Virus record (IMG/VR): IMGVR_UViG_3300028048_000007
Span: 1 to 60,539 of that record
Length of the DNA: 60,539 nt
Reading direction: 5' to 3' (one strand)
Source: a virus
Each line of letters begins with the position of its first letter. The stretch's first letter is position 1. The notes under the pieces are model-generated. The model saw only the letters and a list, made by a program, of their open reading frames with translations, ran no database searches and was not told the origin of the DNA. The translations under genes and the position numbers were made by a program. Below, one piece after another: positions 755-31,101 of the stretch.

Positions 755-763
755 ACTCACTCC

Positions 764-2794: not shown

Positions 2795-2856
2795 AATAAA
2801 ATCTCCTTATCATTTGTGTATTCACATTTGGTGTCACAAATCTTATTAACTACAAT

Positions 2857-2876
2857 GGGGAGGTAAACACCTCCCC
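2857..2876. terminator. GC-rich hairpin GGGGAGGT-aaac-ACCTCCCC between the two fibre genes
   Basis: Perfect 8-bp stem. The T-run (ccatttttattttt) is on the plus side and an A-run on the other, so it is stronger as a plus-strand (antisense-blocking) terminator than for the coding strand. Confidence 0.5.
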
Positions 2877-2895
2877 ACCATTTTTATTTTTAAAT

Positions 2896-3498
2896 TTATG
2901 AAGAAGGTGCTACATCACCAATAGTAACAGTTTTTCCTCCTGCTGAATTATCTGTTTCAACATAAGAAATTGCATTAACTGTTACCTGTGACAAATAATC
3001 ATACCCTGCATCGGGAAGAATTGTTTGTGCTGTGGTATAAGGCGTTGCTGTTTTTGCCTGTGCCGTAACACCCTCACCTGTATAAGTTCCTGTTACTCCA
3101 AGAATGTTTACACCATCCTTAATGTTACTTGCAATAATCTTTGCCTGTTCAGTTGCATCAATCTGAACATGTCCAGAACCATCATGGTAACCTTGCGGTA
3201 CTGTTACCTGTTGTGCAACAGCAGAAATGTCTTCGTCAATAGCACCACGATTAGGCATTGTTCCTGTTAACAAAGTACCTCTTGCATGTGCCGTTTTACC
3301 ATTTAAAATTTCTCCAACAAGTGCTGTGTCCTGTGAAGTATCACTATCTTTTGTAGAAGTACCTGTGATAATAGCACCTGTCGCATCATGTGCTGTTACA
3401 CCGTTTGCAAGGTCTGATGGTGTAATAGTATCAGCCGTAAGGTCTATTTTTACTTCATTTCCGAACACAACCTTGTTTACATATTGATTGTTAGCCAT
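2896..3498 (-). CDS. Tail fibre protein, short paralogue (200 aa) with three G(K/V)T-AH-x-G-x-(I/L)TGT repeats
   Basis: ORF track 2896..3519. Start moved to MANNQYVNKV (ATG 3496-3498) behind GGAGGA. N-terminal ~47 aa align with the 764..2794 product. Confidence 0.75.
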   Translation of the reverse strand: MANNQYVNKVVFGNEVKIDLTADTITPSDLANGVTAHDATGAIITGTSTKDSDTSQDTALVGEILNGKTAHARGTLLTGTMPNRGAIDEDISAVAQQVTVPQGYHDGSGHVQIDATEQAKIIASNIKDGVNILGVTGTYTGEGVTAQAKTATPYTTAQTILPDAGYDYLSQVTVNAISYVETDNSAGGKTVTIGDVAPSS

Positions 3499-3502
3499 TC
3501 TA

Positions 3503-3754
3503 TCATCCTCCAATAACAAAAGTTACACCTTTCACATTACTCGTTTCATAATAAGGTATTTCCTCCACTGTTATGTTTTGCTTAACAACAGTGTTTTGAG
3601 TATCAAGTATTGTTGACTCTCTTACTTTTGGAGTAACATTTATTTGACCAGTGTAAACAGGGTATTCACTTCCACCACCACCCTCTCTTACTGTAAGTGA
3701 AATATGTGTTTCCTCTCTTACAACAAGTGGGATATGCACTTCAAGGGGTTGCAT
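3503..3754 (-). CDS. Hypothetical protein (83 aa)
   Basis: ORF track; tight same-strand packing between terminase and fibre genes. Confidence 0.6.
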   Translation of the reverse strand: MQPLEVHIPLVVREETHISLTVREGGGGSEYPVYTGQINVTPKVRESTILDTQNTVVKQNITVEEIPYYETSNVKGVTFVIGG

Positions 3755-3755
3755 A

Positions 3756-4061
3756 TTAAATCACCCCTTCCTTTAATATCTTTTCAACATCAATCTTTGC
3801 AATGGTAGAAGCAAAGGCAAGATTATTTGTTGTCCTAAACCTAACCTGTACATCACAAGTACCATTAAATAGCTTCAAGGTGTCTTCCTGTGTCAACGTT
3901 ACTATAACCGTTTTGGTTTCGGAATTAACCCTAACCTCACTTAATTCTTTTGTGATTTCAACCATAGGACTCTTAAATGTCACCCAAAGTTCAGCAAGGT
4001 CATCAAGAGGTAACTCCGTTTCCAAGTCCAAAAATATAGTTGGGGTTGTTCCTCTAAACAT
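3756..4061 (-). CDS. Hypothetical beta-rich protein (101 aa), probably virion-associated
   Basis: ORF track. MFRGTTPT..LTQEDTLKL.. pattern that I recall next to fibre genes in Firmicute phages (memory only). Confidence 0.6.
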   Translation of the reverse strand: MFRGTTPTIFLDLETELPLDDLAELWVTFKSPMVEITKELSEVRVNSETKTVIVTLTQEDTLKLFNGTCDVQVRFRTTNNLAFASTIAKIDVEKILKEGVI

Positions 4062-4075
4062 CTTCCTACCTCCGA

Positions 4076-4354
4076 TTATTCTTCCTTGGTTTCAACCAAC
4101 TTTTCAACCTTCTGCGGTTTCTTAATCATCTTGAATTTTTCCGCTTTGTCTTTGGGAACAAGTCCTACACCACTCTTTGTCTTAACGATTACATCACCTT
4201 CATGTGCAATCTTGATTTCTTGTGGTGAGTTTATTCTATAGAAAACTTCATCATCATTTTCAACCCTCTGAATGATGTTGTTTGACATATAGCCTTTTAC
4301 CCAATCGGGAATATTGCCACTTCCTAAAATAAACGTTTCAATCGTTTTAGGCAT
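4076..4354 (-). CDS. Hypothetical protein (92 aa)
   Basis: ORF track 4076..4369; start moved to MPKTIETF behind GGAGG. Confidence 0.6.
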   Translation of the reverse strand: MPKTIETFILGSGNIPDWVKGYMSNNIIQRVENDDEVFYRINSPQEIKIAHEGDVIVKTKSGVGLVPKDKAEKFKMIKKPQKVEKLVETKEE

Positions 4355-4375
4355 TTCATTTACCTCCATTTGTTA

Positions 4376-5722
4376 TTACCTACCTCTAATACTATTATTC
4401 TTTCTCTCCTTAACATCAGCTACATAATAATCATCAAGTGCATACCATATAGCGGAAAGGGTGTGAGGGTCGATGTTAAACTCACTGTACTTTAAACTTC
4501 CATCGGGATTCTTTTTGTAACTCAAATCCCTACACTCACGAATAGTATTATGGCAATTGCTACTACAAATAATTCGCTTAAAGCGTTTTATCTTTTTGGT
4601 ATTTGCAATTCTACTTCCTTCTGTTTTCTTATCGCACTTCTTTAAACAAGGTCGCATTTGGAAACCCTGTTTACGATAATACTTGATTGTTTTAGGCTCT
4701 GCACAATCTGCACGAATAACTTCATCCTTAATACCTTTATCCCACTTTTGAAGTGCAATAGCGGTTTCATCATCGGTCATATGATTTCGGTAATACTCAT
4801 CATAAATGTATAACCATTTGTTAACATCATCAACTGCAACTTTAAGCACAGCATTGTAACTTGTTTCAAAACCGAAATCCATACCGACTCTATGGAAATT
4901 AGCAGGTACATTAAGTACAGCCTTATCAACCAATTTAGCAGACATAACTTCAAATTGAGGAAGTACACGAAGTCCAGTAGCACCGAACTGTCCTAATCTT
5001 GCAACAACCCAAAGTTCTTTATCATATGTTTTCATTTCATCCAAACGTCTTATATAAGCAGGTGGTAAGAATTGGTTATCATCACAAGTGCTATGGTGAT
5101 AGTAAACTCCGTTCTTCACCAATACTTTCTTCTTATACAAAACTTCGGGTTTAACAATAATGGTAGTATTTCCATCACTGTCAGTGTTCTCAAAGAACTG
5201 TTGGTAAACCCAGTTATTTTTACTTATAGGGTTACAGGTAAGTATGAAGTGCATACTGATACCATTTGTACGAATACGCCCTAATATTTCCAAGTAAGCA
5301 TCGAGGGAAACTTCTGAACATTCCTCTATCCATACAATACTTACACCGTTTAACGACTTTAGTTTTTCGGTACTATCCATACCTTTGAAGATTATTCTAC
5401 TTCCATTAGGAAATTTGAATTCAAGTGGAGCATTTTTAAAACACACTTTGGTCTTATGTTGTCTTACACCAACATCTGCAAGCAACCCCATGTCATCCAA
5501 AACCTGTTTAATTAAGTCGAATGTACTCTCTTTGTGTGTGTCGTATACATCTCTGAATACACACGCCTTTCTTTTCTCTGCAAACAGTTTCAGAATTATC
5601 TTTTGAACCGTACTGTGTGATTTACTACTACCATATCCACCAATTACCAAATACTTTTCATAATCCCAATCGAAGATGTAATTATCAAAAGCAGGATTGA
5701 TACACATTGTTGCTTTCGGCAT
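4376..5722 (-). CDS. terL: Terminase large subunit (PBSX/Terminase_3-like)
   Basis: Walker A GGYGSSKSH, Walker B IVWIEECSE, C-terminal nuclease region (GMDFGFE). Start moved to MPKATM (ATG 5720-5722) behind AAGGAGAGAG. Confidence 0.9.
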   Translation of the reverse strand: MPKATMCINPAFDNYIFDWDYEKYLVIGGYGSSKSHSTVQKIILKLFAEKRKACVFRDVYDTHKESTFDLIKQVLDDMGLLADVGVRQHKTKVCFKNAPLEFKFPNGSRIIFKGMDSTEKLKSLNGVSIVWIEECSEVSLDAYLEILGRIRTNGISMHFILTCNPISKNNWVYQQFFENTDSDGNTTIIVKPEVLYKKKVLVKNGVYYHHSTCDDNQFLPPAYIRRLDEMKTYDKELWVVARLGQFGATGLRVLPQFEVMSAKLVDKAVLNVPANFHRVGMDFGFETSYNAVLKVAVDDVNKWLYIYDEYYRNHMTDDETAIALQKWDKGIKDEVIRADCAEPKTIKYYRKQGFQMRPCLKKCDKKTEGSRIANTKKIKRFKRIICSSNCHNTIRECRDLSYKKNPDGSLKYSEFNIDPHTLSAIWYALDDYYVADVKERKNNSIRGR

Positions 5723-5753
5723 TTTACTCTCTCCTTTTTTATATAATAGCAAA

Positions 5754-5783
5754 ACAAGCCATCGACTTCTGCCGATAACTTGT
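5754..5783 (-). promoter_or_regulatory. Hairpin in the terL leader (AACAAG..ATCG / CGAT..CTTGTT, then TTTTG on the coding strand); attenuator/terminator-like
   Basis: Read by eye; lies between the 5861-5888 promoter and the terL RBS. Confidence 0.35.
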
Positions 5784-5860
5784 TGCCTATAACTTTTAAC
5801 TTTTTACAAGGGAATCTTTACAATAGAATATATTTGAATAGAATACTTCCGACATATACA

Positions 5861-5888
5861 ATTATACCATATATATAATATAAGTCAA
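5861..5888 (-). promoter_or_regulatory. Sigma-A-type promoter for terL (-35 TTGACT, 16-nt spacer, -10 TATAAT)
   Basis: Reverse complement of 5861-5888 reads TTGACTtatattatatatatggTATAAT. Confidence 0.55.
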
Positions 5889-6129
5889 CAAACATTCTAT
5901 TCATATATAATACATTTCGATACATAAAATCATTTTTGAATTTTACTTTTTCTTTTATATATTTTCTTTTTATATATTATATATATTTATATATACATAT
6001 AACATACATATTACTGATATACAGCGAAAAGCGGATAAAAATTTTTAGTAAATGGAAGTGAGTAGCGTTCAAAGTGTTTTTAATGCACTTCAAAACATTC
6101 TACTCAATCTTCCATATTCTTACTAATTG

Positions 6130-6804
6130 TTACTCTTCACTTTCATCATCTTCCCAGTTATCCCAAAGTTCACTTTCTTCATCACTTAATTCATCTGAAT
6201 CATCACCACTTTGTTCTAACTGCTCTTTTGTGTATGTTACAGATTTGTTTATTACATCACCGTTTTCATCGTAAATTTCAACGTTCTCATCTTCATCGGT
6301 AACTTCTTCATCTTCATCGTAGATATCAATTTTCTGTTTATTTCCTCTTTGTATAGTAATAGTAACTTGACTATCATCGGGGTCAACTTCAACAATTTTA
6401 TCTCTATTAAGTTTCCAATCTTCAAATTTTCTGTTATTAAGCCAGAACATTGCGGCTTTGACATTCGGTGGAACTTCTTTTACGGTTGTTTCTTTCAACA
6501 TCTCAACCATTTCACCATTTACCATTTTCTTTCCTATGGTAACCTTAATCTCTTTCGTTTTATATCCTAATGCCGCTTTTAAAATAGCATTTTCAACTTG
6601 ATAATCTACAAGTTCTCTTGTTGTATTAATTGCTTCATCTATTTCAGCATATTTCTTTTGCCATTTTACGAGAGTGTTTACATTTATATTCATACGCTTT
6701 GCAATTTCTGCTTTACTAAATGTATCTCTCGACCAACTTCTTATTAATTCAAGTCCATCTTCTGTAAGCCAATAATCGACTTTACTTTCATTTATGTTTC
6801 CCAT
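6130..6804 (-). CDS. terS: Terminase small subunit (N-terminal HTH) with a strongly acidic C-terminal tail (..ELWDNWEDDESEE)
   Basis: 224-aa ORF. The segment ..TFSKAEIAKRMNINVNTLVKWQKKYAEIDEAI.. is typical of terS HTH domains; position upstream of terL. Confidence 0.7.
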   Translation of the reverse strand: MGNINESKVDYWLTEDGLELIRSWSRDTFSKAEIAKRMNINVNTLVKWQKKYAEIDEAINTTRELVDYQVENAILKAALGYKTKEIKVTIGKKMVNGEMVEMLKETTVKEVPPNVKAAMFWLNNRKFEDWKLNRDKIVEVDPDDSQVTITIQRGNKQKIDIYDEDEEVTDEDENVEIYDENGDVINKSVTYTKEQLEQSGDDSDELSDEESELWDNWEDDESEE

Positions 6805-6953
6805 GACAAATAAAACCTCCTATGTTCAAATTCAAATCAGAAAACAAAAAATTTTGATATGCTTTTTTCAATTTTTATATCAATATGCCATACCCTTTTA
6901 AATAGTGGTGGCTCACAATGAATCAGTTTAATTCAAATTGCTGTGGTTAACGT

Positions 6954-7035
6954 TCACTTTGCTATGCTTTCATTCACTTCATTTCACATCACTTCTCATC
7001 TCACTCACGCTCACAGCACTTTGAATGACGCTCAC
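6954..7035. repeat. Phased TCAC(T) repeats upstream of terS (candidate terS-binding / pac-type region)
   Basis: TCAC at 6954, 6974, 6984, 6989, 7001, 7005, 7011 and 7032, i.e. largely on a ~10-bp register. Confidence 0.4.
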
Positions 7036-7253
7036 TTCAAATGGCTTTATATATGAAATGGGTGGAGGATTTCTGGGAGAGTAGTAGCGCACAAAAATTA
7101 AATAGCACCCATTATGATTGCCTATCCCCCACACACCTGTTATTATTTCATGCGTTATATATCGGGTGTTATTGTGGGGATTTGATAACAGATTTTATTT
7201 TTTATCGAGAGGCTGGCAACGTACCTATTCAATCACACTTATTATTTATTTTA

Positions 7254-7406
7254 TCACTCACTGTATAATATAACAGCTTTTATTATTCCATATCTTTTTA
7301 CAGTATTAAAGAAACACTTGTAATAAAAACATATACTTTTTAAATATCCCTTTAAACTACCATTACTTTTTCTACTTATTCTTTCATAGTCTATTATATG
7401 AAACAT
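7254..7406 (-). CDS. Possible small protein (50 aa)
   Basis: Hand translation MFHIIDYERISRK..AVILYSE; ATG 7404-7406 sits 8 nt after GGAGG; below the ORF-track cutoff. Confidence 0.35.
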   Translation of the reverse strand: MFHIIDYERISRKSNGSLKGYLKSICFYYKCFFNTVKRYGIIKAVILYSE

Positions 7407-7426
7407 ACTTTTAAACCTCCTATTTT

Positions 7427-7497
7427 GCCCCATATTTACATTTTATACTTTTAATGTATTTCTATACACTTATTATATTTCGGTGCAAATATGGGGC
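7427..7497 (-). repeat. 14-bp inverted repeat (GCCCCATATTTgCA / TGtAAATATGGGGC, one G.U on the coding strand) with a 43-nt loop, just downstream of 7509..7988
   Basis: Read by eye; no T-run follows, so not a classical terminator. Confidence 0.5.
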
Positions 7498-7508
7498 GTT
7501 TATGGTCT

Positions 7509-7988
7509 TTATTCATACCATTTATTAATATAATGGTTAATACTTGTATTTGCGAAAATAGTCTTTTTTGATAACGTGTTATAAGGATATATAAGGGCGA
7601 AAATATCATATAGATTATTAATGATAGTTTCTATATCATGTCTACAATTTGACATTGTATAGAAACAATATTCGGTATCATGAAAAGTTTCACCCATTGC
7701 ATTTATATAATCCGCTTTTTTCCAAGTATCAATACAAGCATGATAACGAATATATTTTCCATTTGGTTTGCACTCATATACAATCTTTTCAAGTGCTGTT
7801 ATAAGCTGATTAAGAATACTTTCATCTGATACTTTTTTATCTTTAGTTTTTGCGATTAAGTGATTAATACTCATATCAAATAATATTTTGCTGTTTTTAC
7901 GGTCATTTTTATAAAACAGTATATATGCACCGTTTGACTGGTAGGGCGTGTTATAAGTGTCTTTGTACAGGTTTCTATTTTCCGTCAT
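7509..7988 (-). CDS. Hypothetical protein (159 aa)
   Basis: ORF track; last gene of the early direction before the terS control region. Confidence 0.65.
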   Translation of the reverse strand: MTENRNLYKDTYNTPYQSNGAYILFYKNDRKNSKILFDMSINHLIAKTKDKKVSDESILNQLITALEKIVYECKPNGKYIRYHACIDTWKKADYINAMGETFHDTEYCFYTMSNCRHDIETIINNLYDIFALIYPYNTLSKKTIFANTSINHYINKWYE

Positions 7989-8439: not shown

Positions 8440-8619
8440 TCAACTCCGCTTTTCTACTACTCCGTTATTGTATCTGTATTCGTGACCGTTAACTTCAAAT
8501 AATACGTAGTTTCCGTTTCCATCACCCTCTAACAAAACTATGTCTTTTAAAGGTGCGGTAAAACCGTATTCATTTTTTAATACTATTTGTGCTAACTGTT
8601 TGAACTCTGTTTTTGTCAT
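8440..8619 (-). CDS. Small hypothetical protein (59 aa)
   Basis: Hand translation MTKTEFKQLAQIVLKNEYGF..; ATG 8617-8619 sits 8 nt after GGAGG; first gene behind the 8661-8689 promoter. Confidence 0.55.
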   Translation of the reverse strand: MTKTEFKQLAQIVLKNEYGFTAPLKDIVLLEGDGNGNYVLFEVNGHEYRYNNGVVEKRS

Positions 8620-8660
8620 GTTTAAAACCTCCGTTTAGTGTGGTTTGTTTTGTTGTGCTA

Positions 8661-8689
8661 ACTATATCAAATATATTTGTTGATTGCAA
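8661..8689 (-). promoter_or_regulatory. Sigma-A-type promoter (-35 TTGCAA, 17 nt, -10 TATAGT) with an AAAATATTTT UP-like tract
   Basis: Reverse complement reads TTGCAAtcaacaaatatatttgaTATAGT; member of the conserved promoter family. Confidence 0.6.
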
Positions 8690-9167
8690 CAACTTTTTAA
8701 AATATTTTTCAAAAATCTTTTTCTATTTTCCATTATTAGGAAGAAACGCACACAAAACAGATAAACACGGCATTTTTACATATATTGTTTAATATTGCAC
8801 AACGAAAATAATAAAACGTTGGTTAAGATATACAAAAACAATGATTTACAATAGATTTTTTCAAAATTTACAAAATATTAAAAGTTTGTTCGGTTTTGTC
8901 ATACCCTACAAACCGCATGGTTAAGCGATTTTGCCCATTAAGGGTCGAACAAAGACTTTTTCGATAAAGTTATCATTAAAAGGGTAAAATTCAAATTTGG
9001 GGCGTTTTTGAGCGTTTTAAGGGCATATCTAAAATGTCAAGAAAAATCGTAAAATTGACATATAGAAAAAATATCATTGTTTTTGGTTATTTTTAACAAG
9101 TGGTATTTTCTGGCACTTAAAACAGCTTATTTACAGAAAATAGATTAAATTGTTTTCAATTTGTTTT

Positions 9168-9234
9168 AATTGTGTAAAAATTTAAGTTTTTCCGTTCTCT
9201 GGTATTTTCGGGATATTTAAATTTTTACACAATT
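9168..9234. repeat. Perfect 18-bp inverted repeat AATTGTGTAAAAATTTAA / TTAAATTTTTACACAATT with a 31-nt spacer
   Basis: Arms 9168-9185 and 9217-9234 are exact reverse complements. Confidence 0.9.
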
Positions 9235-9367
9235 AATCAAATTGACTATACAATTCTCAAATATTGCTATTTTCCGTTTCTGGCATCCGATAAAATAAAA
9301 TATTTGCTGTTATGTTATTTTCTATCCCTGTTTTTAATAACAAACGGTATTTTATCGGGCATCCTGT

Positions 9368-9384
9368 AAATTGTCAGACAATTT
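9368..9384. promoter_or_regulatory. 17-bp palindrome AAATTGTC-A-GACAATTT (operator-like); same core as 14909-14923 and 15010-15024
   Basis: Self-complementary by inspection. Related half-sites ATTGTCAGA at 9400-9408 and 9460-9468, and ATTGTC at 9471-9476. Confidence 0.6.
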
Positions 9385-9403
9385 GCTCATTTTCGTTAAA
9401 TTG

Positions 9404-9417
9404 TCAGAATATTCTGA
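9404..9417. promoter_or_regulatory. 14-bp perfect palindrome TCAGAATATTCTGA overlapping an ATTGTCAGA half-site
   Basis: Self-complementary by inspection. Region 2 has the near-identical TCTGAATATTCTGA at 15035-15048. Confidence 0.5.
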
Positions 9418-9476
9418 AAACTCGGTGAATTGTACTCATTTTCACACACAATTATGCGAATTGTCAGAAAATTGTC

Positions 9477-9510
9477 GGGGCGGTCGGCGTGGGCGGTCGG
9501 GCGGCATCCG
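9477..9510. other. Isolated GC-rich island (GGGGCGGTCGGCGTGGGCGGTCGGGCGGCATCCG) containing GCGGTCGG twice
   Basis: Stands out by eye in an otherwise AT-rich non-coding region. Confidence 0.8.
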
Positions 9511-9753
9511 TTCTTCCTACGTACTTTCTTTTTACGTTGTTTCTGTATTCGCATTATGTCATATTCGCATTATGTCGTATAACGCTCAAATTCGGCTCAT
9601 TTTCGCATTTTGTACCATTAATGGTATATTTATATACCTACACAATAAAAACGCCATTTTGAGGCAAATTTGAGCGTTTTACGTATGCTTTATTACATAG
9701 ATATATAAATACAGCATTATTTATATACTTTTCATCGTTCCTGTACTGTTTTT

Positions 9754-9894
9754 AGTGTAGTAGGAAGAATTTTTAGTAGTAGGATGAATTTTGAAAAGTA
9801 GTAGGAGAAATTTTTCGTAGTAGACGGAATTTTGCACAGTAGGAGGAATTTTGAGTAGTAGAAGGAAAATTAAAGAGTAGTAAAAGGAATTTTT
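9754..9894. repeat. Tandem array of 7 imperfect 16-22-bp repeats, consensus AGTAGTAGGAGGAATTTT (iteron-like; every unit keeps a GGA core)
   Basis: Units start at 9754, 9775, 9797, 9817, 9838, 9854 and 9876. Confidence 0.9.
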
Positions 9895-9912
9895 AACATA
9901 TCCCAGAAACAA

Positions 9913-9940
9913 GGAAAAACGGCATTTACTGCCGTTTTCC
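9913..9940 (-). terminator. Rho-independent terminator after 9962..10384 (GGAAAACGGCA-gtaaa-TGCCGTTTTTCC, then T-rich)
   Basis: 11-bp GC-containing stem with one bulged A, followed by TTGTTTC on the coding strand. Confidence 0.75.
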
Positions 9941-9961
9941 TATTGGTATCTGTATTTACTT

Positions 9962-10384
9962 TTACTTTCTCTTTTTGTTGTGATTTTCCTTATAATACTT
10001 CATAGATTCGGGATAAAACAGATTGATTATATCTCCCAAACCTGCATTGAGAAATACCGCATATTTAATCATCTTTTCAATGTTAGGATTCTGTTTTCCC
10101 TGTAATACCTTTGTGGTATTTGCTATATCATCTCCAATAGCCTGTGCAAACTCTGATACAGTGTTATAACCGTATGCTTTCAGAAAATCTTTTCTTACTT
10201 CATACACTTTATCGGGAATTGCCTTTTTAACCGTCTTATTTGCCGTTTTAACAGGCTTTACGTTCTTTTTGGTACTTTTTACCGCTGTTGTCTTCTTTGT
10301 AGGCTTCTTGACCGTTTTAGCGGCTTTTACAGACTTATTTGCAGTTACCTTCTTTGTATTCTTTGTATTTGCTGTTTTTCTCAT
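9962..10384 (-). CDS. DNA-binding protein: Lys-rich histone-H1-like N-terminal repeats plus a C-terminal XRE-like HTH
   Basis: 140 aa. KKVTANKSVKAAKTVKKPTKKTTAVKSTKKNVKPVKTANKTVKKA, then ..VSEFAQAIGDDIANTTKVLQGKQNPNIEKMIKYAVFL.. Confidence 0.65.
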   Translation of the reverse strand: MRKTANTKNTKKVTANKSVKAAKTVKKPTKKTTAVKSTKKNVKPVKTANKTVKKAIPDKVYEVRKDFLKAYGYNTVSEFAQAIGDDIANTTKVLQGKQNPNIEKMIKYAVFLNAGLGDIINLFYPESMKYYKENHNKKRK

Positions 10385-10431
10385 TTATTTTTCCTCCATT
10401 TTGTTGTTTTTAAGTGTTTTATGTGTTTTGT

Positions 10432-11037
10432 TTAGCTTATTTCTGTTCTAACGTAGTTTACAAGTGCATATTCCAAACTACAACGAAAAACTGGATTATC
10501 TCTCAATTCTTTACAGTTTCTTACTATTGCAAGTTTAACTAAATCTAACTTTTCCGCTACTTCATCAAAAACCTGTTTACTAGCACTTATCTGTTTTTCG
10601 TAGTTCTCAATGTATTTCTTTTGCTTTTCTTTTTCTGATTCTATCTTTTCGATAATTTCATCAGTATTGAGTAAATAAGTTGTTCTCCAGAAACCTTCAC
10701 TACTTTTTAAATCCTTTATTCTTTCATCTTCTGGATTTTTAGCTTTCATGTCATCTACATACATATAAGCATCGAATTCGTAAGTGTTAAAATTTCCGTC
10801 ACTTGTGTATCCAGAAACTTGAAAAGTAGGATGATTATAATCGTTATATGATTTAATTATAATCTTTCCATTTACAAAAGTCTGGTTTTTGTTCTGAAAA
10901 TGCGTTCCGTCTTTCTTACGCTTTATTTCTACTTTTTCAAGTAATTCCAGATTGTTTTTATGATATTTTAAATCATCATTTAACTTTCTTACTATTTCTT
11001 CATAACCTTTTGTTACTTCAAAACTACAACTTGACAT
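10432..11037 (-). CDS. Hypothetical protein (201 aa), coiled-coil C-terminal half
   Basis: ORF track. Confidence 0.65.
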   Translation of the reverse strand: MSSCSFEVTKGYEEIVRKLNDDLKYHKNNLELLEKVEIKRKKDGTHFQNKNQTFVNGKIIIKSYNDYNHPTFQVSGYTSDGNFNTYEFDAYMYVDDMKAKNPEDERIKDLKSSEGFWRTTYLLNTDEIIEKIESEKEKQKKYIENYEKQISASKQVFDEVAEKLDLVKLAIVRNCKELRDNPVFRCSLEYALVNYVRTEIS

Positions 11038-11106
11038 TTTTCACCTCATTTCTGTTTGTGGTTAGTCTGAAAGACTCACAAACAATCATTTTTTGTTTAC
11101 AGTTAC

Positions 11107-11135
11107 ATTATACCAAACTATTTTACTAATTGCAA
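11107..11135 (-). promoter_or_regulatory. Sigma-A-type promoter (-35 TTGCAA, 17 nt, TGgTATAAT extended -10) overlapping the 3' end of 11126..11449
   Basis: Reverse complement reads TTGCAAttagtaaaatagtttggTATAAT. Confidence 0.55.
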
Positions 11136-11449
11136 TACTTTATTTTAATTATTTTGTCATCTTTAACAGCACTTGTATGGTTGTTATCCATCAATACGCT
11201 GTATAACTCTCCTGTGTGTATATCTCCGTCTTCTGCTATGTATTCAAATACATTTCCATTACTTGTGATAAACTCTACAAGGTAATTTTCTCCGTATTCC
11301 TCTACATTTGCAACTTTACAGGTTTCTGGATACAAAGATGTATTTCTATCCCATATAAAAGCTACAAACAATGCTATAAAACCTGTTAGCATGTAAATAC
11401 AACATTCTTTCCAAAACTGCTCATTTGTCATCTCTTTTTCATTATCCAT
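11126..11449 (-). CDS. Hypothetical membrane protein (107 aa, one TM); stops at TAG followed directly by TAA
   Basis: ORF track; the ..CCIYMLTGFIALFVAFIW.. hydrophobic segment. Confidence 0.65.
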   Translation of the reverse strand: MDNEKEMTNEQFWKECCIYMLTGFIALFVAFIWDRNTSLYPETCKVANVEEYGENYLVEFITSNGNVFEYIAEDGDIHTGELYSVLMDNNHTSAVKDDKIIKIKYCN

Positions 11450-11464
11450 TTATTATCCCTCCGT

Positions 11465-11761
11465 TTAATCAATTATTTCATCGGTTACAATTGCGTATTG
11501 TTCATACCCCCACAAATAACCTCTTTTATAGCTTTCTTCCATATAGTTTTCGTGTGTTTGTATGTTATGCAAAACCGCATCCCATTTAATACCTGCGTGA
11601 AACATACACTTTGCGAAAATATCTCTATCATACTGATATTTCGGTCTGATTCTTATTAAACTTTCAAACCCACATCCGCACCCATTTACAATCTCCGCAC
11701 ATACTGTATTTTTGTTATTTTCTACTACATAAAGTCTTGTTATTGTTTTTGCTACCTTCAT
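11465..11761 (-). CDS. Hypothetical protein (98 aa)
   Basis: ORF track; GGAGG RBS. Confidence 0.65.
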   Translation of the reverse strand: MKVAKTITRLYVVENNKNTVCAEIVNGCGCGFESLIRIRPKYQYDRDIFAKCMFHAGIKWDAVLHNIQTHENYMEESYKRGYLWGYEQYAIVTDEIID

Positions 11762-11812
11762 TCAATTTACCTCCATTTTGTTATTGTCAACACTTTTTTT
11801 TGAAAAATATTT

Positions 11813-12436
11813 TTACTGGTATATAGGACTTCCGTTTTCACTCCAACCTAAATATTCGTTTACTTCCCAGATATCTTTTATTTCATCATCTTCTACTTCG
11901 TAAAAGAAACTATATCCGTCATCCTCCATTTCTTTACAATACTTTTTAAAACAATCATTAAACATGTTTGCTATACACTCAATGGTATTATACGGTATAT
12001 CCCTATAATAGTTTCCCTCCATTTCCATTTCAACATAATATCTTATATCATCGGCTTTACTGATATAATAACAATAATCTCTGTTTTCACGGTTTATTAT
12101 TTCTATATCCTGCTTTTCCAGATAATCAGCAAAACGCTTTTCCTGCTTGTTAAATAACTCATTATAGTCTTCGTGCTTTTCTTTGATAAAACGGATTATA
12201 TCGAATATAGCAAAAGTTCCGTATATATTTAATCCGTCACCTTGACAAGATGAAAGACTATATTGTACTTCTAATTTGCTATTCGGAAAATCAACTTTTA
12301 ATGTGTCTTCTATACTTTCACTTAGCATTTCCGATTCACGAAAATCCTCACAATATTTCATTCTTGCGTTTTCTTTTGCTGTATCAGATAATTCGTCAAA
12401 ATCATAAACCTTTTCAATTCTTGTAATTTCCCTCAT
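11813..12436 (-). CDS. Hypothetical protein (207 aa)
   Basis: ORF track 11813..12451; start moved to MREITRIEKVY behind GGAGG. Confidence 0.65.
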   Translation of the reverse strand: MREITRIEKVYDFDELSDTAKENARMKYCEDFRESEMLSESIEDTLKVDFPNSKLEVQYSLSSCQGDGLNIYGTFAIFDIIRFIKEKHEDYNELFNKQEKRFADYLEKQDIEIINRENRDYCYYISKADDIRYYVEMEMEGNYYRDIPYNTIECIANMFNDCFKKYCKEMEDDGYSFFYEVEDDEIKDIWEVNEYLGWSENGSPIYQ

Positions 12437-12454
12437 CGTGTTTACCTCCAATTT

Positions 12455-12703
12455 TCAATCTACTTCTTTTGATGCAAACAAAAAATCATAATCATCCAAT
12501 AAATCATTTAAAATATACTTTCTTGTTATCCTGCTAAACTGTCCTTTAGGTTTCCCGATATAATTTCTAATCACTTTATCCTGTCCGTTTTCATCCTTTA
12601 TCCATTCCATATACTGTCTGATATAATAATGACCACAGTTTGTTCTTTTTACCTGTATAAACTTATTTTCATTTCTACGATTTCTATAAGTGTACAATCT
12701 CAT
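12455..12703 (-). CDS. Hypothetical protein (82 aa)
   Basis: ORF track 12455..12718; start moved to MRLYTYRN behind GGAGGG. Confidence 0.6.
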   Translation of the reverse strand: MRLYTYRNRRNENKFIQVKRTNCGHYYIRQYMEWIKDENGQDKVIRNYIGKPKGQFSRITRKYILNDLLDDYDFLFASKEVD

Positions 12704-12743
12704 TTTATTTCCCTCCATAGGTTTTATTTGTTTTGTTGTATTT

Positions 12744-12772
12744 AATATATCATACTATTTTGTTACTGTCAA
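12744..12772 (-). promoter_or_regulatory. Sigma-A-type promoter, family consensus copy (-35 TTGACA, 17 nt, -10 TATATT)
   Basis: Reverse complement reads TTGACAgtaacaaaatagtatgaTATATT, preceded by an A/T UP-like tract. Confidence 0.7.
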
Positions 12773-12791
12773 CAACTTTTTTTTATTTTTT

Positions 12792-13178
12792 TTAATTCGA
12801 CATTGATAAAACCCATTTGGACTTTTTCATTTCCTGCTTTGCTTTTCTTATCAGTTCTTTGTATCTCTTTATTTCGTCTTTGTATGCTTTCTTTTCCTCT
12901 TCTGTTGCAATTCCCATATACCAACTATATGTATTGATTCTTTCAGTGTAAAACTCTATGTCGTTTCTGTATTCTTCAATCCTTTTCTTTATTTCGTTTT
13001 CAAACTCAATCTGTTCTTCTGATTTGCTGTTATCAACTAATTTCTTACCTGTGTTGTAAATATCCTGCTTTGTGAGTTTATCGTTCTCCATATAAAGTGC
13101 TTCTAATGATTTATACACTCTGTAGTTATACTCTGTTTCCTTGCATCCTGTATTTTCAACAAATTCGCTGTACAACAT
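12792..13178 (-). CDS. Hypothetical protein (128 aa), Lys/Glu-rich helical
   Basis: ORF track. Confidence 0.65.
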   Translation of the reverse strand: MLYSEFVENTGCKETEYNYRVYKSLEALYMENDKLTKQDIYNTGKKLVDNSKSEEQIEFENEIKKRIEEYRNDIEFYTERINTYSWYMGIATEEEKKAYKDEIKRYKELIRKAKQEMKKSKWVLSMSN

Positions 13179-13257
13179 GTTTTCATCCTCCGTTTATCAT
13201 CTCTGTTTTAATGACTACGTTAGTTTGTTTTAAACTGTAATCATCTTTGTTGTACTC

Positions 13258-13286
13258 AATATATCATAGCGTTTTGTTGTTGTCAA
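13258..13286 (-). promoter_or_regulatory. Sigma-A-type promoter, family consensus copy (-35 TTGACA, 17 nt, -10 TATATT)
   Basis: Reverse complement reads TTGACAacaacaaaacgctatgaTATATT, preceded by AAAAATATTTTTAAAAAAG. Confidence 0.7.
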
Positions 13287-13429
13287 CTACTTTTTTAAAA
13301 ATATTTTTTATTTTTATTTTCCCTCTTTTTATCGGTCTTTGTTGTTCTTCCGTCACACGGTTTTACTCTTGTATTTTCTCCGCACACTTTAAAATAAATG
13401 CATCCTTTACAGGGATTTTTTACACTCAT

Positions 13430-13903
13430 TTATTTTTCCTCCATACCTTCAAACTTTATTTTCAGTTCCATTAAATTCCTGCGTATCTCTCCACAATGTG
13501 CATTTTGCTGTTCATAATATTCAACGTCATGTAGAAACTGTCTACAGAAACCAACAGCACTATTACAACTACCACAATTTGAAATATGATTCTTTAAATC
13601 ATCTAACAGCTTATCTAAACGTTTGTCGTTGTCTTTCTCTCTATAATCGTTACATTCCAACAGTTTATCAACACTCTTTATGTATTCATTATCCATTTGT
13701 TCTTTCTCCAGATATTCTTCATGCTGTTTTATCATCTTATTTGCATCTGCTATAGTTTCGGGGCATCCGATATAGTTACCGTCACAATATAATTTCCAAA
13801 CTTTTCGTATTCCCTTTGGAGGATATATTCTGGCACTCTTCCGTAAAACATACTTTGTACCTTTTGTTGCGTATAACTCTTTGTTTACTTTTTCAAGTTT
13901 CAT
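13430..13903 (-). CDS. Hypothetical Cys-rich protein (157 aa)
   Basis: ORF track; GGAGGGG RBS. Confidence 0.65.
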   Translation of the reverse strand: MKLEKVNKELYATKGTKYVLRKSARIYPPKGIRKVWKLYCDGNYIGCPETIADANKMIKQHEEYLEKEQMDNEYIKSVDKLLECNDYREKDNDKRLDKLLDDLKNHISNCGSCNSAVGFCRQFLHDVEYYEQQNAHCGEIRRNLMELKIKFEGMEEK

Positions 13904-13918
13904 TTTTCACCCCTCCAT

Positions 13919-14104
13919 TTACAATGTATCATCATAAATGTTTGCTAAATGATACAACAATGTTAATTGTGCTTTCTGCTGTGGTGTTTTATCTTTCATG
14001 TTGTACAATCTTACTATTTCACTTTCAATTTCTTCAATCAATCTTTCCGCACAATCAATCATTTTCTTTGTTGTATCTATTTGTTCTTTGATTTTCTTTT
14101 CCAT
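13919..14104 (-). CDS. Hypothetical protein (61 aa)
   Basis: ORF track; AGGAGG RBS. Confidence 0.55.
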   Translation of the reverse strand: MEKKIKEQIDTTKKMIDCAERLIEEIESEIVRLYNMKDKTPQQKAQLTLLYHLANIYDDTL

Positions 14105-14126
14105 TCCGTTTACCTCCTGTTTATTT

Positions 14127-14168
14127 ACAGGGATTATGGATAAACTGTATTAGTTTCATAATCCCTGT
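14127..14168 (-). repeat. Perfect 12-bp stem hairpin ACAGGGATTATG / CATAATCCCTGT (18-nt loop) between two genes
   Basis: Read by eye; no T-run, so an intercistronic structure rather than a clear terminator. Confidence 0.6.
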
Positions 14169-14179
14169 ACACCGTTTAT

Positions 14180-14596
14180 TTACTCTTTTACGTAGTAGTT
14201 TCCAACACAACCACCATGTTTTACACAATCCCATATATCAACGTTTTTACCGTTCTCAACAACTGACAAATGGTGTGCCATATTAATAATATAAGTGCCT
14301 GTTTTGTATTTGTCAACAAATTCTTTTACAGTATACTTTGTACCGTCAATATGTCGGGGTTGTGGCATTTTCTTCCACCCATACTTTTCCAGAATTGCTT
14401 CAAACGTTCTTTTATCATCCTTGCAATAGCCTGTTTCAATCTGTCTATATGCAATTTCCAAAACAATGTCATTGTATGGAACTCCTGTTGCATAACTGAT
14501 TGCACGATACACGCAATCACCTGTAATACGGTTATGCGGATTCTGGTTGTGATAATGGAATGTTTCTGTTTCGGGGTACTTTTCAGTTCTTTTCAT
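14180..14596 (-). CDS. Putative papain-fold (C39-like) cysteine peptidase
   Basis: 138 aa. Ordered GDCVYRAIS (Cys) .. MAHHLSVVENG (His) .. VDIWD (Asp), reminiscent of C39/NlpC-type triads (motif-level only). Confidence 0.4.
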   Translation of the reverse strand: MKRTEKYPETETFHYHNQNPHNRITGDCVYRAISYATGVPYNDIVLEIAYRQIETGYCKDDKRTFEAILEKYGWKKMPQPRHIDGTKYTVKEFVDKYKTGTYIINMAHHLSVVENGKNVDIWDCVKHGGCVGNYYVKE

Positions 14597-14684
14597 TTTG
14601 TCAACCTCTTTTCAATATTTTGTTTTCAATGTGCGGTTTGCAATTCTACCACCAACAACCTGTTAATGATACCTTGCAAGTATC

Positions 14685-14713
14685 ATATTACACCCACCTG
14701 TTGTTATTGTCAA
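14685..14713 (-). promoter_or_regulatory. Sigma-A-type promoter (-35 TTGACA, 17 nt, -10 TAATAT)
   Basis: Reverse complement reads TTGACAataacaacaggtgggtgTAATAT, with an A/T-rich UP-like tract at 14714-14750. Confidence 0.7.
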
Positions 14714-14908
14714 CAACTATTTTAAAAAATTTTCAAAAAGTTTTTTTCACGGAAATAAAATCTTGACATTGTATATCACAACAAAAGAAAATGCAACTTA
14801 AAATTTTCACCAAATTTTTCATTGGTTATTGTCAACTTTCCCATGTCTGACAATTTACAAATTTTTCGGTTTCTGTATTGACAATGGATTGAATTTTCTG
14901 ATAATCAG

Positions 14909-14923
14909 AATTGTCTGACAATT
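14909..14923. promoter_or_regulatory. 15-bp palindrome AATTGTC-T-GACAATT (operator-like), directly downstream of a plus-strand TTGACA/GATAAT promoter-like pair (14878-14905)
   Basis: Self-complementary by inspection. Confidence 0.6.
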
Positions 14924-15009
14924 AAATGTTATTTTACCGATTTTGGGATGGTTTTTAGACAATTTAAAAGAAACATGTGTGATTCATACACAACTCCGAA
15001 AGCTGTCTG

Positions 15010-15024
15010 AATTGTCTGACAATT
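15010..15024. promoter_or_regulatory. 15-bp palindrome AATTGTC-T-GACAATT (second exact copy in region 2)
   Basis: Self-complementary. Flanked by half-sites GTCTGA (15005-15010), GTCTGAATATTCTGACAATT (15034-15053), plus 14845-14855 and 14957-14964. Confidence 0.6.
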
Positions 15025-15190
15025 TGGTGAGTTGTCTGAATATTCTGACAATTCTGAAAATTCGGATTCGGTTTTGTACCCCATATACGTATACGCATAC
15101 ACACGTACATACGTACTTACTTATTTACTATATTATTTCGCATTATGTATACGCCACCACACGGTACACGTTACATGTGTTACACTCAAC

Positions 15191-15310
15191 AAATAAATAG
15201 AAAGTACATTCTGCGGATAAATTGATGTGATAAATACCAAAGGGGATTCTTTGTCATGGCAAAAACAAAGTGATTATTATGTTCTCACAGAATGTACTCT
15301 CTATTTATTT
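15191..15310. repeat. Long inverted repeat: 23-bp arms (22/23 complementary) around a 74-nt spacer; candidate structured RNA or cruciform
   Basis: 15191-15213 AAATAAATAGAaAGTACATTCTG versus 15288-15310 CAGAATGTACTcTCTATTTATTT. The spacer holds a small CTTTG..CAAAG hairpin. Confidence 0.85.
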
Positions 15311-15347
15311 ATTGTAATGCTTTTGTATTGTTCCACCAAGCTAATAC

Positions 15348-15400
15348 AGTAGTAGGAGGAATTTTGAGTAGTGGGAGTTTTTAGTAGTAAGAGGATTTTA
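15348..15400. repeat. Tandem array of 3 repeats of the same AGTAGTAGGAGGAATTTT family as 9754-9894
   Basis: AGTAGTAGGAGGAATTTTG / AGTAGTGGGAGTTTTT / AGTAGTAAGAGGATTTTA. Confidence 0.85.
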
Positions 15401-15420
15401 AACCATATAAATAAAACAAT

Positions 15421-15505
15421 GGGGAGATAGCCTTATTATTACCGATAAACGGTTACAAGGACTTACGCTCTCCCCAGATGAGGAAGGTGGGGTAAGTCAC
15501 CTTCC
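15421..15505 (-). terminator. Two consecutive hairpins after 15505..15846: GGAAGGTG-n8-CACCTTCC (15482-15505, includes the TAG stop) and GGGGAGA..TCTCCCC (15421-15475), then a T-rich run
   Basis: Read by eye; ATTGTTTTATTT follows the second stem on the coding strand. Confidence 0.65.
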
Positions 15506-15846
15506 TAAATCCCTATTTTATTTTCCAAATCATACAGGTAAATAATTGCTTGCTGAAAATCTTCTTTTCTTATCTCAATTGCTCCTGTATCATCGTTCTT
15601 ATGTGTAAATCTTCTCTTTGGTGTTACAATCTTACTCTTCTCTTTGATTATCTCATCTATAAAGTTATCTGCCACCTTATAAATAATAAATGCAACCAAA
15701 AATGCTAAACACTTAAGAACATCATCTATATCGGTAAAAAGTAATGTTGCTATAACTCCCAGAACAAACAATAAGTTGATTGCAACAATTACTGTTTTAA
15801 TTGAAAGAAGCTTTGCAAACTTTCTTTTTAATATTTTTGCTATCAT
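15505..15846 (-). CDS. Hypothetical membrane protein (113 aa, two TM); stop codon TAG
   Basis: ORF track; hydrophobic segments VIVAINLLFVLGVIATLLF and LAFLVAFIIY. Confidence 0.65.
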   Translation of the reverse strand: MIAKILKRKFAKLLSIKTVIVAINLLFVLGVIATLLFTDIDDVLKCLAFLVAFIIYKVADNFIDEIIKEKSKIVTPKRRFTHKNDDTGAIEIRKEDFQQAIIYLYDLENKIGI

Positions 15847-16160: not shown

Positions 16161-16604
16161 TTACTCATCTTCTTTTTCAAACTCTTTTCTTAATCCGTCT
16201 GCAAGACCTTTTAAATCGTGTTCCATTTTATTCTTAAACACATTCATCTTGCACTCATTACAATTGCAATCTCCTGCCATGTAGAATATTGTATGTAACT
16301 GTTTGCAATTCTTACAATGTTCATCAATTGCATCTTTTAAACTTCTTACGCAATACAAGGAAACTGTAAATACCGTTCTTGTCTGCTTCGCTTTTATTAC
16401 CTTGCCTGTTTTCTTCTGTCTGACAAGTTTTTCTATCTCTTTTGTACTTTTGTTGACCTGTACCGATATGTTTTTAGAATAAGAAGGACTATTATAAACA
16501 TGGGTTGCTAACCACTTAACGGCTTCCATAAAAACTTCTTTGGAAACATCTCCCTCAAACTCTTTATCGAGTATCTTTATGCTATAATTTTCTAAATCTG
16601 TCAT
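16161..16604 (-). CDS. Hypothetical protein with a C-terminal Cys cluster (147 aa)
   Basis: ORF track; ..HCKNCKQLHTIFYMAGDCNCNECK.. Confidence 0.65.
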   Translation of the reverse strand: MTDLENYSIKILDKEFEGDVSKEVFMEAVKWLATHVYNSPSYSKNISVQVNKSTKEIEKLVRQKKTGKVIKAKQTRTVFTVSLYCVRSLKDAIDEHCKNCKQLHTIFYMAGDCNCNECKMNVFKNKMEHDLKGLADGLRKEFEKEDE

Positions 16605-30615: not shown

Positions 30616-31101
30616 TTAAATGTCATGCTTTCCATCTACATCAAATTTCTCTGCTTCTACTTCTGAATCAATCTTCTGTAAACTTTCTTCAAGCCAACCT
30701 GTAAGATAATCTCTTTCCATAGAACAAAGCATATCCACATCAAATCTTTTTTCTATGCTCTTTCCTTTATATTCAAAACCAATTCCAATTTCACCGTTCC
30801 GAATATCGTTTTCTTCAACAAATGTTTCTACTTTTAAATAAATACCGTATCTTCCAGATAACGCAAATAACTTTGTCGCTAACTCTGTTAAATCAAGTTT
30901 TTCTTTTTTCACCATTACAATCGGTTGATTAAAAGCAATCTTGTCTTTACTTTCATAACCTTTTTTTGTCATCTCCTGTAGCAACTGTTGAAGTATAGCA
31001 GGATTAATTACCCTCTTGGGATGTATAATCAATATCCCTTTACCTTCTCCAAGTTCTACAAAACCACTGTCAATACCAACCTGTATTAATGACATTATCA
31101 A
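30616..31101 (-). CDS. Hypothetical protein (161 aa)
   Basis: ORF track. Confidence 0.65.
   Translation of the reverse strand: MIMSLIQVGIDSGFVELGEGKGILIIHPKRVINPAILQQLLQEMTKKGYESKDKIAFNQPIVMVKKEKLDLTELATKLFALSGRYGIYLKVETFVEENDIRNGEIGIGFEYKGKSIEKRFDVDMLCSMERDYLTGWLEESLQKIDSEVEAEKFDVDGKHDI

Follow-up and report, generated by a model that had tools for sequence, protein, structure and literature searches.

The two long non-coding control regions of a 60,539-nt virus genome (IMG/VR record IMGVR_UViG_3300028048_000007, positions 1 to 60,539; this whole stretch is referred to here as the window) carry arrays of a 15-nt site with the sequence and overlapping arrangement of the operators of CodY, the global regulator of low-GC Gram-positive bacteria that senses branched-chain amino acids (BCAA) and GTP, and for which the binding consensus AATTTTCWGAAAATT has been published (PMC5314169, PMC10415144). 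From the sequence, the best description of the feature is that of CodY-type operator arrays within a duplicated control module, and we suggest, with a probability of roughly 0.6, that the arrays are CodY operators which either couple a putative origin/early-control module to host nutrition or titrate CodY. The two regions, R1 (8621-9961) and R2 (14597-15504), are the only long non-coding regions in the early part of the genome, and their clusters of sites, about 5.5 kb apart, lie on either side of the minus-strand gene block 9962-14596, as the first-pass annotation of this DNA had described.

The site family, AATT[T/G]TCWGA[A/C]AATT, matches the CodY box AATTTTCWGAAAATT position by position. 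It was defined with the help of relatives: homologues of a 138-aa protein (14180-14596) and of the Lys-rich protein encoded beside R1 led to seven metagenomic contigs (L121, L122, L124, L129, L130, L139 and L140) with 50-96% protein identity to the window, while one IMG/VR search with the 138-aa protein gave no relative. When every TCWGA core (71) was collected from nine R1/R2 regions of five clade members, the consensus was AATT[T.51/G.35]TCWGA[A.51/C.35]AATT, and 54/71 of these cores lay within two mismatches of the CodY box, versus 0/126 elsewhere in the window. A second collection, anchored on the flanks alone (AATT-N7-AATT), recovered the same centre (T6.94, C7.88, W8.90, G9.88, A10.94). 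Perfect consensus CodY boxes occur in L129 (8347) and L140 (1353), and since the relatives mix AATTGTC and AATTTTC half-sites, the family is wider than the palindrome AATTGTC(A/T)GACAATT from which the first-pass annotation had started. The exact palindromes that it listed are present as 15-mers at 9369-9383 (within a 17-bp palindrome, 9368-9384), 14909-14923 and 15010-15024, and the half-sites were likewise found in place (ATTGTCAGA at 9400 and 9460, GTCTGACAATT at 14845-14855, GTCTGAATATTCTGACAATT at 15034-15053). The sites of the window are as follows.

9369..9383, R1: site 1, the perfect palindrome AATTGTCAGACAATT, with two symmetric mismatches (T5G, A11C) to the CodY box.
9399..9422, R1: 24-nt overlapping operator AATTGTCAGAATATTCTGAAAACT, in which the 15-mers at 9399 and 9408 share 6 nt; 2/24 mismatches.
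9450..9473, R1: operator AATTATGCGAATTGTCAGAAAATT, 4/24 mismatches; its 3' box, 9459-9473 (AATTGTCAGAAAATT), is one mismatch from the consensus.
9166..9236, R1: perfect 20-nt inverted repeat (arms 9166-9185 and 9217-9236), with a weaker variant box in each arm (AATTGTGTAAAAATT and AATTTTTACACAATT; three mismatches, C7G class).
15001..15062, R2: array A, a double operator at 15001-15024 (including the palindrome 15010-15024) and a triple overlapping operator at 15030-15062, AGTTGTCTGAATATTCTGACAATTCTGAAAATT, with 3 mismatches in the 24-mer at 15030 and 2 in that at 15039.
14892..14923, R2: array B, AATTTTCTGATAATC at 14892 and the palindrome AATTGTCTGACAATT at 14909-14923.
14846..14860, R2, gene strand: half-site AATTGTCAGACATGG, ending 5 nt upstream of the -35 element (TTGACA, 14836-14831) of a secondary promoter; L124 has it, L129 and L130 do not.
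14728..14816, R2: two consensus-like 15-mers without a TCWGA core, AATTTTCAAAAAGTT at 14728 and AATTTTCACCAAATT at 14802, both uncertain as operators; the one at 14728, close to the -35 of the main promoter on its upstream side, is probably an UP-element-like A/T sequence.

A whole-window scan bore out the confinement of the motif to the two control regions. The half-site AATTGTCWGA has ten copies in 60.5 kb on both strands, all of them within 9369-9468 and 14846-15053 (10/10 in the clusters, 0 in the other 58 kb). With expected counts taken from dinucleotide-preserving shuffles, AATTGTCNGACAATT had 6 matches at two or fewer mismatches versus 0.68 expected (0/100 shuffles reach 6), the CodY consensus at the same threshold had 10 versus 1.75 (all in 9369-9473 and 14728-15053), and the degenerate 24-mer AATTTTCWGAAWWTTCWGAAAATT at three or fewer mismatches had 3 (at 9399, 15030 and 15039) versus 0.00. 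The genome is 67% A+T, the motif is itself A/T-rich, and R1 and R2 share several repeats, so that their similarity could partly stem from duplication; one might thus regard the clusters as a functionless by-product of the composition of A/T-rich non-coding DNA, of chance, or of a recent local duplication. That explanation is effectively refuted, given that the shuffles never match the observed counts and that no sites occur in the other non-coding stretches of the window or in 128 kb of the distant relatives CS266P1, Dulem virus 36 and bajarodcaudo virus 5, which have a similar GC content and therefore serve as a negative control for composition. A TGTCWGACA core without AATT flanks is present at 16417-16425, inside the gene 16161-16604, and at the same place in L121, L122 and L124; it may be kept for coding constraint alone.

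The behaviour of the sites in the clade also speaks against a by-product, since they outlast divergence of their flanks in relatives with 50-80% protein identity, and since the consensus is unchanged although the number of sites differs between relatives. We counted 12 sites in L121 (0.44 expected), 16 in L129 (0.56 expected; 15 of them in the R1/R2 equivalents), 15 in L139 and 5 in L140. The relatives' sites lie in the equivalents of R1 and R2, together with the iterons and boxes described below, the sole exception being the L129 site at 10646.

The arrangement of the sites is as telling as their sequence. In a typical CodY operator, two 15-nt motifs overlap by 6 nt to form a 24-nt site, to which two dimers bind co-operatively, and triples are known (PMC10415144). 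In the R regions of the clade the commonest spacing between adjacent cores is 9 bp (10 cases), which does not occur in the rest of the window (0 cases), followed by 20, 30 and 51 bp, so that the units are spaced by about whole helical turns (20, 30, 51, 101 bp), the last value being the distance between the palindromes 14909-14923 and 15010-15024. The first-pass annotation had proposed a second type of palindrome, TCWGAATATTCWGA, and this does occur only at 9404 and 15035; it is not a separate operator type, however, because TCWGAATATTCTGA arises where two boxes with a 9-bp shift overlap, as in the 24-nt overlapping CodY operator, and its copy at 9404-9417 lies within the R1 operator 9399..9422. 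The resemblance extends to individual operators: 22/24 bases of 15039-15062 are identical to the optimised operator used for CodY-DNA crystals (PMC10415144), and L121 9055-9078 matches the same operator at 23/24.

Predicted boxes of codY-dependent genes in S. salivarius are identical to phage 15-mers, e.g. AATATTCTGACAATT at thrC, AATTTTCAGACAATT at codY and AATTGTCTGATAATT at livK (PMC5966866), from which it follows that the G5/C11 variant is not foreign to CodY; this streptococcal regulon study was the sole paper found with a phage 15-mer. Compared with established operators (hutP, ureA and bcaP of B. subtilis, and the CodY-DNA structures of S. aureus and E. faecalis), the phage arrays show the same 15-nt consensus throughout, the same 6-nt overlap at a 9-bp shift including triples, a location in non-coding regulatory DNA, and tolerance of one to three mismatches including G5/C11. 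They differ in being carried by a virulent-looking phage genome rather than at a host metabolic or virulence promoter, in having more sites per locus (4-11 per region here and >20 in some phages), and in being helically phased, beside iterons and ~100-700 nt upstream of promoters; the phage arrays are known from sequence. A literature search, in an incomplete collection, found no description of CodY boxes on virulent phage genomes.

Motifs of other regulators were considered as well. Spo0A boxes (TGTCGAA) number 4 in the window versus 4.75 expected, with none in R1 or R2, and DnaA boxes 24 versus 25 expected, i.e. they are not enriched; by inspection, TGTCTGAATATTCTGACA has a spacer of 8 nt instead of the 7 of the TnrA/GlnR box (TGTNA-N7-TNACA), and motifs of the Fur, Rex, ComK and ParB types do not fit.

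The same boxes occur in phages that are otherwise unrelated to the window phage. In Bacillus phage P59 (MT151604), 8 kb of the long terminal repeat contain 21 sites versus 0.07 expected, and Bacillus phage Nigalana has 7 in its first 1.5 kb (both phages being Bacillus Herelleviridae), while the Staphylococcus Sextaecvirus vB-SscS-F1 has 7 in an 811-bp divergent intergenic region. Many IMG/VR contigs carry 15-27 sites per locus, and in those tested (L003, L013, L084 and L094) the modal core spacing is again 9 bp. No proteins common to the window phage and the tested IMG/VR, Nigalana and P59 loci were found (the Sextaecvirus locus lay outside this comparison). All the verified array-bearing isolates (P59, Nigalana and vB-SscS-F1) infect Firmicutes; the Gram-negative matches were all in Acinetobacter phages, weak and inside coding sequence, and one weak match was in an Arcanobacterium phage.

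Details of these loci vary. P59 has, at 3900-6520, more than 20 copies of AATATTCTGACAATT or AATTGTCAGAATATT at 38-48-bp intervals; the copies stand where the annotated long terminal repeat is non-coding, and resemble a tandem expansion of the 24-nt overlapping operator unit. In L003 (IMGVR_UViG_3300009686_000008), positions 360-7945, many separate TTGACA/TATAAT promoters have a single box 18 or 27-28 nt ahead of their -35 element, and these boxes are often accompanied by a GGAGGAGCTGGA motif and a AATTGTGTGAA variant; similar GGAGCTG motifs accompany the boxes in P59 and Nigalana. A group of linear IMG/VR genomes of ~12-14 kb with inverted terminal repeats of at least 240 bp (L002, with repeats at 1-240 and 13468-13707, L006, L024, L027, L038, L042, L043 and MT836155) has the palindrome AATTGTCAGACAATT once or twice in these repeats, at 39-85 nt from the ends and with a consensus promoter downstream of it; CodY-type boxes thus adjoin presumed protein-primed origins there.

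Who, then, binds the sites? The first-pass annotation had taken the palindromes for a shared operator set, read by a phage protein and perhaps involving DNA looping. Its description of one dyad-symmetric, operator-type family in two control regions holds, and the family is conserved; it is not private to this phage, since it equals the CodY box. For looping between clusters 5.5 kb apart we see no support, the known co-operativity of CodY being that of overlapping, adjacent sites. As to the binder, a Pfam scan of ~80 window proteins showed no CodY GAF or HTH_CodY domain, and because the same boxes recur in unrelated Firmicute phages that have no homologue of the Lys-rich protein, one host factor is a simpler explanation than converging phage repressors. 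We consider that the sites are probably bound by the host's CodY. The first of the annotation's two candidates is encoded by the following gene.

9962..10384, minus strand: clade-specific protein with a Lys-rich tail and an XRE/Cro-type helix-turn-helix (HTH), the last gene before R1.

It is unlikely, in our judgement, that the sites are operators of this protein or of the other XRE-type regulator (31098-31373, a clear HTH_3 protein), with the likeness to CodY boxes arising by coincidence or through competition. In favour of such operators it may be said that dimeric XRE proteins commonly bind 14-18-bp palindromes, and that the Lys-rich protein has a confidently predicted XRE/Cro-type helical domain (residues 60-135) with an HTH that is invariant over 14 homologues, beside a disordered Lys-rich tail. 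It is present in every examined clade member with R1, always as the final gene before R1; the array-free CS266P1, Dulem virus 36 and bajarodcaudo virus 5 lack it. This co-occurrence does not discriminate, however, because it is common to most clade-specific early genes, and the distribution of the protein is far narrower than that of the boxes: it has no homologues in 50,697 phage records, and its family consists of 18 members, all from this clade. Moreover, the 6-nt overlap at a 9-bp shift is a speciality of CodY and not a feature of XRE dimers, the TCWGA centre is conserved like the flanks whereas the spacers of XRE operators are usually variable, and the ~80 scanned proteins include no lysogeny module and no divergent repressor/cro pair. 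A comparison of the Lys-rich protein with PDB sequences gave no match. In this clade the protein may nevertheless be a competing binder of the sites.

A similar judgement applies to the parallel with lambda OL/OR. Both systems have multiple dyad-symmetric sites, grouped in two clusters that lie a few kb from each other on either side of an early gene block; unlike lambda, the window phage has no lysogeny module that we could find and no cognate divergent repressor gene, its main promoters are not overlapped by the sites, and its motif is common to unrelated phages and equals the consensus of a host regulator. We know of no CI-type repressor with the overlapping-site architecture described here.

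The context of the arrays is the same in both regions. R1 and R2 are copies of one composite module and, followed along the direction of transcription, have an identical succession of elements: a terminator-like hairpin behind the upstream gene, iterons, an A/T-rich stretch with inverted repeats, one to three ACATAATGCGAA boxes, a spacer and the palindrome array, the promoters of the next gene block lying much further along than the array in both. The elements other than the arrays are these.

9756..9893, R1, plus strand: seven 19-22-bp iterons AGTAGTAGGAGGAATTTT.
15348..15400, R2, plus strand: three copies of the iteron AGTAGTAGGAGGAATTTT.
9576..9720, R1: A/T-rich stretch with two long imperfect inverted repeats, between the iterons and the boxes; highly conserved in L121 and L129.
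15187-15314, R2: inverted repeat with 27-nt arms, at the place equivalent to the A/T-rich stretch of R1.
9548..9613, R1, minus strand: three ACATAATGCGAA boxes (TTCGCATTATGT on the plus strand).
15137..15148, R2, minus strand: single ACATAATGCGAA box, with order and spacing to the array as in R1.

The iterons occur nowhere else in the window and are kept at the start of both regions in all relatives, and the first CodY-type site lies 85-105 nt beyond the last ACATAATGCGAA box in R1 and R2 of every clade member. Tandem 17-22-bp direct repeats beside an A/T-rich inverted-repeat region, as found in both regions, are what is expected of an iteron-type origin, and we regard the repeats as candidate origin iterons. 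Phages with two origins that share repeat types exist, e.g. SPP1, so the palindromes could also be viewed as parts of two origins, R1 and R2, that are read by a phage initiator or origin-binding protein, with nutrition being irrelevant. In favour of such a role are the iterons, the A/T-rich inverted repeats and the conserved box, which stand in fixed order and at fixed spacing to the arrays in both regions, and the position of the palindrome in the small linear genomes, 39-85 nt from the ends of the inverted terminal repeats, where protein-primed origins are sited. The motif is, on the other hand, common to unrelated phages with different replication modules (DnaE-type here, Herelleviridae, Sextaecvirus); a phage initiator would be expected on lineage-specific iterons rather than on a motif equal to a host regulator consensus, and the L003 boxes, upstream of many -35 elements, have a transcriptional context and not that of an origin. 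We think an initiator very unlikely to be the reader of the palindromes, although this explanation is a rival only in part, being compatible with CodY acting at an origin.

Some further features of the module may be mentioned. On the gene strand the iteron reads AAAAUUCCUCCUACUACU and contains an anti-Shine-Dalgarno-like CCUCC. The spacer between boxes and arrays is a G+C-rich patch with G-runs in R1 (9476-9510, GGGGCGGTCGGCGTGGGCGGTCGGGCGGC) and ~50 nt of alternating purines and pyrimidines in R2 (15075-15125), both being unusual and structure-prone for a 33% GC genome. Right after the stop of the gene 15505-15846, the minus strand of 15410-15504 has a conserved RNA-like element of two stem-loops, the first being GGAAGGTG-ACTTACCC-CACCTTCC and the second a long hairpin (GGGGAGA...TCTCCCC) with a U-run; its invariant loop CUUAC is complementary to an invariant GUAAG of the second hairpin, three pairs show compensatory changes over five sequences, no Rfam match was found, and a pseudoknot or an antiterminator is possible. 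Finally, within a 700-nt non-coding stretch of R1, the minus strand at ~8880-8950 has a conserved island, TTTGTTCGACCC...GGGCAAAATCGC...GCGGTTTGTAGGG...CGAACAAA, with a closing 8-bp stem; the island is kept in L121 and L129 and may be a small RNA or a protein-binding element.

CodY sites control promoters by overlapping them, by acting as a downstream roadblock or, for activation, from just upstream. The promoters at 8661-8689 and 14685-14713 named by the first-pass annotation were both recovered by a consensus scan.

14685..14713, minus strand: TTGACA-17-TAATAT, the main promoter (sigma-A type) for the block 14596-9962; the arrays are ~180-350 nt upstream of it.
8661..8689, minus strand: promoter of the block starting at 8619, TTGCAA-17-TATAGT with TG, ~690 nt downstream of the R1 array.

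The arrays are separate from, and upstream of, the -35 and -10 elements of both, so that they are not operators placed over promoters; only a half-site abuts a -35 (that of the secondary promoter, 14831-14836), and from the strong arrays it is 190-700 nt downstream to the main promoters, which makes it unlikely that CodY acts on these by classical occlusion. Across the clade the distance from array to main downstream promoter is variable (about 190-700 nt, with 4-11 sites per region) and that from box to array is fixed, so that the arrays seem tied to the unit of iterons, A/T-rich stretch and boxes rather than to a promoter. A plus-strand promoter in R2 (TTGACA-16-GATAAT, 14878-14905), with the palindrome 14909 at its start site, resembled a classic repressed promoter, but it is retained by the near-identical L124 alone, L121 and L129 not sharing it, and was dropped as a general mechanism.

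Several considerations count against our preferred explanation. The exact palindromes favour G5/C11 over the consensus T/A, and the Bacillus phages repeat one variant with two mismatches; since selection for CodY affinity alone predicts perfect boxes, there is room for a different or competing protein, and the XRE-type protein beside R1, with its invariant recognition helix, could bind a 15-bp palindrome. The presence of codY in the host is assumed from Bacillota-like signals. No iteron initiator protein was recognised in the replication module, which makes the origin reading a tentative one. With the arrays standing off the strongest promoters, classical CodY repression is not an obvious output, and the direction of any effect is a guess.

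With these reservations, we suggest that the arrays may constitute the nutrient-sensing part of the duplicated origin/early-control module. In a fed host, liganded CodY dimers would bind the arrays co-operatively and form a higher-order nucleoprotein complex at both regions, the occupancy of which would report the CodY activity of the host and gate the module; the direction that we favour is licensing in fed cells and deferral in starved cells. Alternatively, with the same binder, arrays on replicating genomes could act as a sponge that titrates CodY and so derepresses the host regulon for amino-acid supply, a role for which a replicating genome would supply high-affinity sites in variable and expandable number. 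Given host CodY as the binder, the chances of a sensor or gate appear slightly better than even, a sponge is a plausible but more doubtful proposition, and some other role seems improbable.

There are precedents for such a dependence on the host. The virulent Bacillus phages phi29 and Nf have Spo0A boxes near early promoters and replication origins (PMC2731898), and so, like the window phage, are lytic phages with sites for a nutritional or developmental master regulator of the host, through which the phage programme follows host physiology. Their motif is another one (TGTCGAA shows no enrichment here), as are the type of genome and the architecture of the sites; and, because CodY is active in fed cells and Spo0A when sporulation sets in, an inverted switch logic would apply in the present case, unless the arrays serve for titration. 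For phages of Alphaproteobacteria, CtrA-binding sites have been described and 'lytic deferment' proposed (PMC9437464); there too, comparative genomics revealed conserved motifs of a host global regulator in promoter regions of lytic phages, taken to fit the timing of the lytic programme to the state of the host, and the control regions studied here contain significant and conserved matches of this kind. The CtrA phages involve another phylum and another regulator, and have single promoter-proximal sites rather than overlapping arrays by iterons.

The conserved arrays of the window clade and their counterparts in unrelated Firmicute phages raise the further question of how general the phenomenon is. 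That CodY-operator arrays are a widespread and undescribed device of lytic Firmicute phages, for reading the BCAA/GTP status of the host and so licensing replication and early expression, or for sponging CodY off the host chromosome, is a generalization from sequence to which we would give not quite an even chance; it would take in the gut/rumen siphovirus clade, the terminal repeats of Bacillus Herelleviridae, the Staphylococcus Sextaecvirus and the small linear genomes bounded by inverted terminal repeats. Should the arrays bind CodY, then to the two precedents of virulent phages with host master-regulator sites (phi29-Spo0A and the CtrA-site proposal) a further case would be added, the first with the main nutrient sensor of Firmicutes, and there would be a molecular basis for lytic Gram-positive phages adjusting or postponing their development in starved hosts; if they act as a sponge, host amino-acid metabolism would be reprogrammed without any dedicated phage protein. 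Since the boxes are also present in phage isolates whose hosts are tractable (the B. cereus group and Staphylococcus/Mammaliicoccus), and for which mutants in codY and the purified protein are in routine use, the idea is directly testable. For annotation, it seems advisable to compare dense A/T-rich palindromes in phage control regions with host regulator motifs before a phage repressor is invoked.

The window itself is a 60.5-kb phage genome of ~33% GC with all genes on the minus strand. Its principal genes are listed here.

4376-5752, minus strand: large terminase (TerL).
57700-59340, minus strand: portal.
54425-55474, minus strand: major capsid protein.
48683-51073, minus strand: tape measure.
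33770-35002 and 31489-33048, minus strand: DnaE-type DNA polymerase III alpha, in two open reading frames (ORFs).
33169-33651, minus strand: HNH endonuclease ORF between the two DnaE ORFs.

Primase, RecA, ThyX, RNase H and one tRNA-Gln are also encoded, and the relative CS266P1 has the same DnaE split by an HNH ORF. The Pfam scan of the ~80 proteins gave no integrase or recombinase either, and the phage is virulent-looking. Its closest isolates by terminase and capsid (~50-55% amino acid identity) are gut Clostridium phages, alongside two metagenomic viruses. The early genes have TTGACA-17-TATAAT consensus promoters with an upstream TG, and AGGAGG ribosome-binding sites, which together indicate a Bacillota host. 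A TerL scan found a 75% relative (L141) in an 'uncultured Bacilli' metagenome-assembled genome (MAG) and a 55% relative in a Clostridia MAG; no arrays were seen near the TerL of L141. Thus the host hints (the MAG relatives of TerL and the Clostridium phages) all point to Bacillota, in which CodY is widespread. A genome scan for the host with the receptor-binding candidate 43852-45249 gave no match. No DNA similarity to known phages was found for R1, or for 8600-15500, a plasmid similarity search returned 38-nt chance matches only, and Rfam (gathering threshold for the window, E-value threshold for 8600-15600) gave only the tRNA-Gln and one chance microRNA match.

Other genes are worth recording. 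A DNA methylase (N6_N4_Mtase) in 26096-26908 is split into an N-terminal ORF (26528-26908) and a C-terminal ORF (26096-26296). In the endolysin ORF 59685-60314, alongside CW_7 and LysM, a GH25 domain is represented by its C-terminal part alone; the N-terminal part is probably to be found on the other side of the window boundary (60315-60539 and 1-111), which points to circular permutation of the assembly or to another split gene. An 84-aa protein with similarity to sigma-70 region 4 / DUF1492, encoded at 42871-43125 a short way upstream of the morphogenesis genes, is a candidate late-gene activator.

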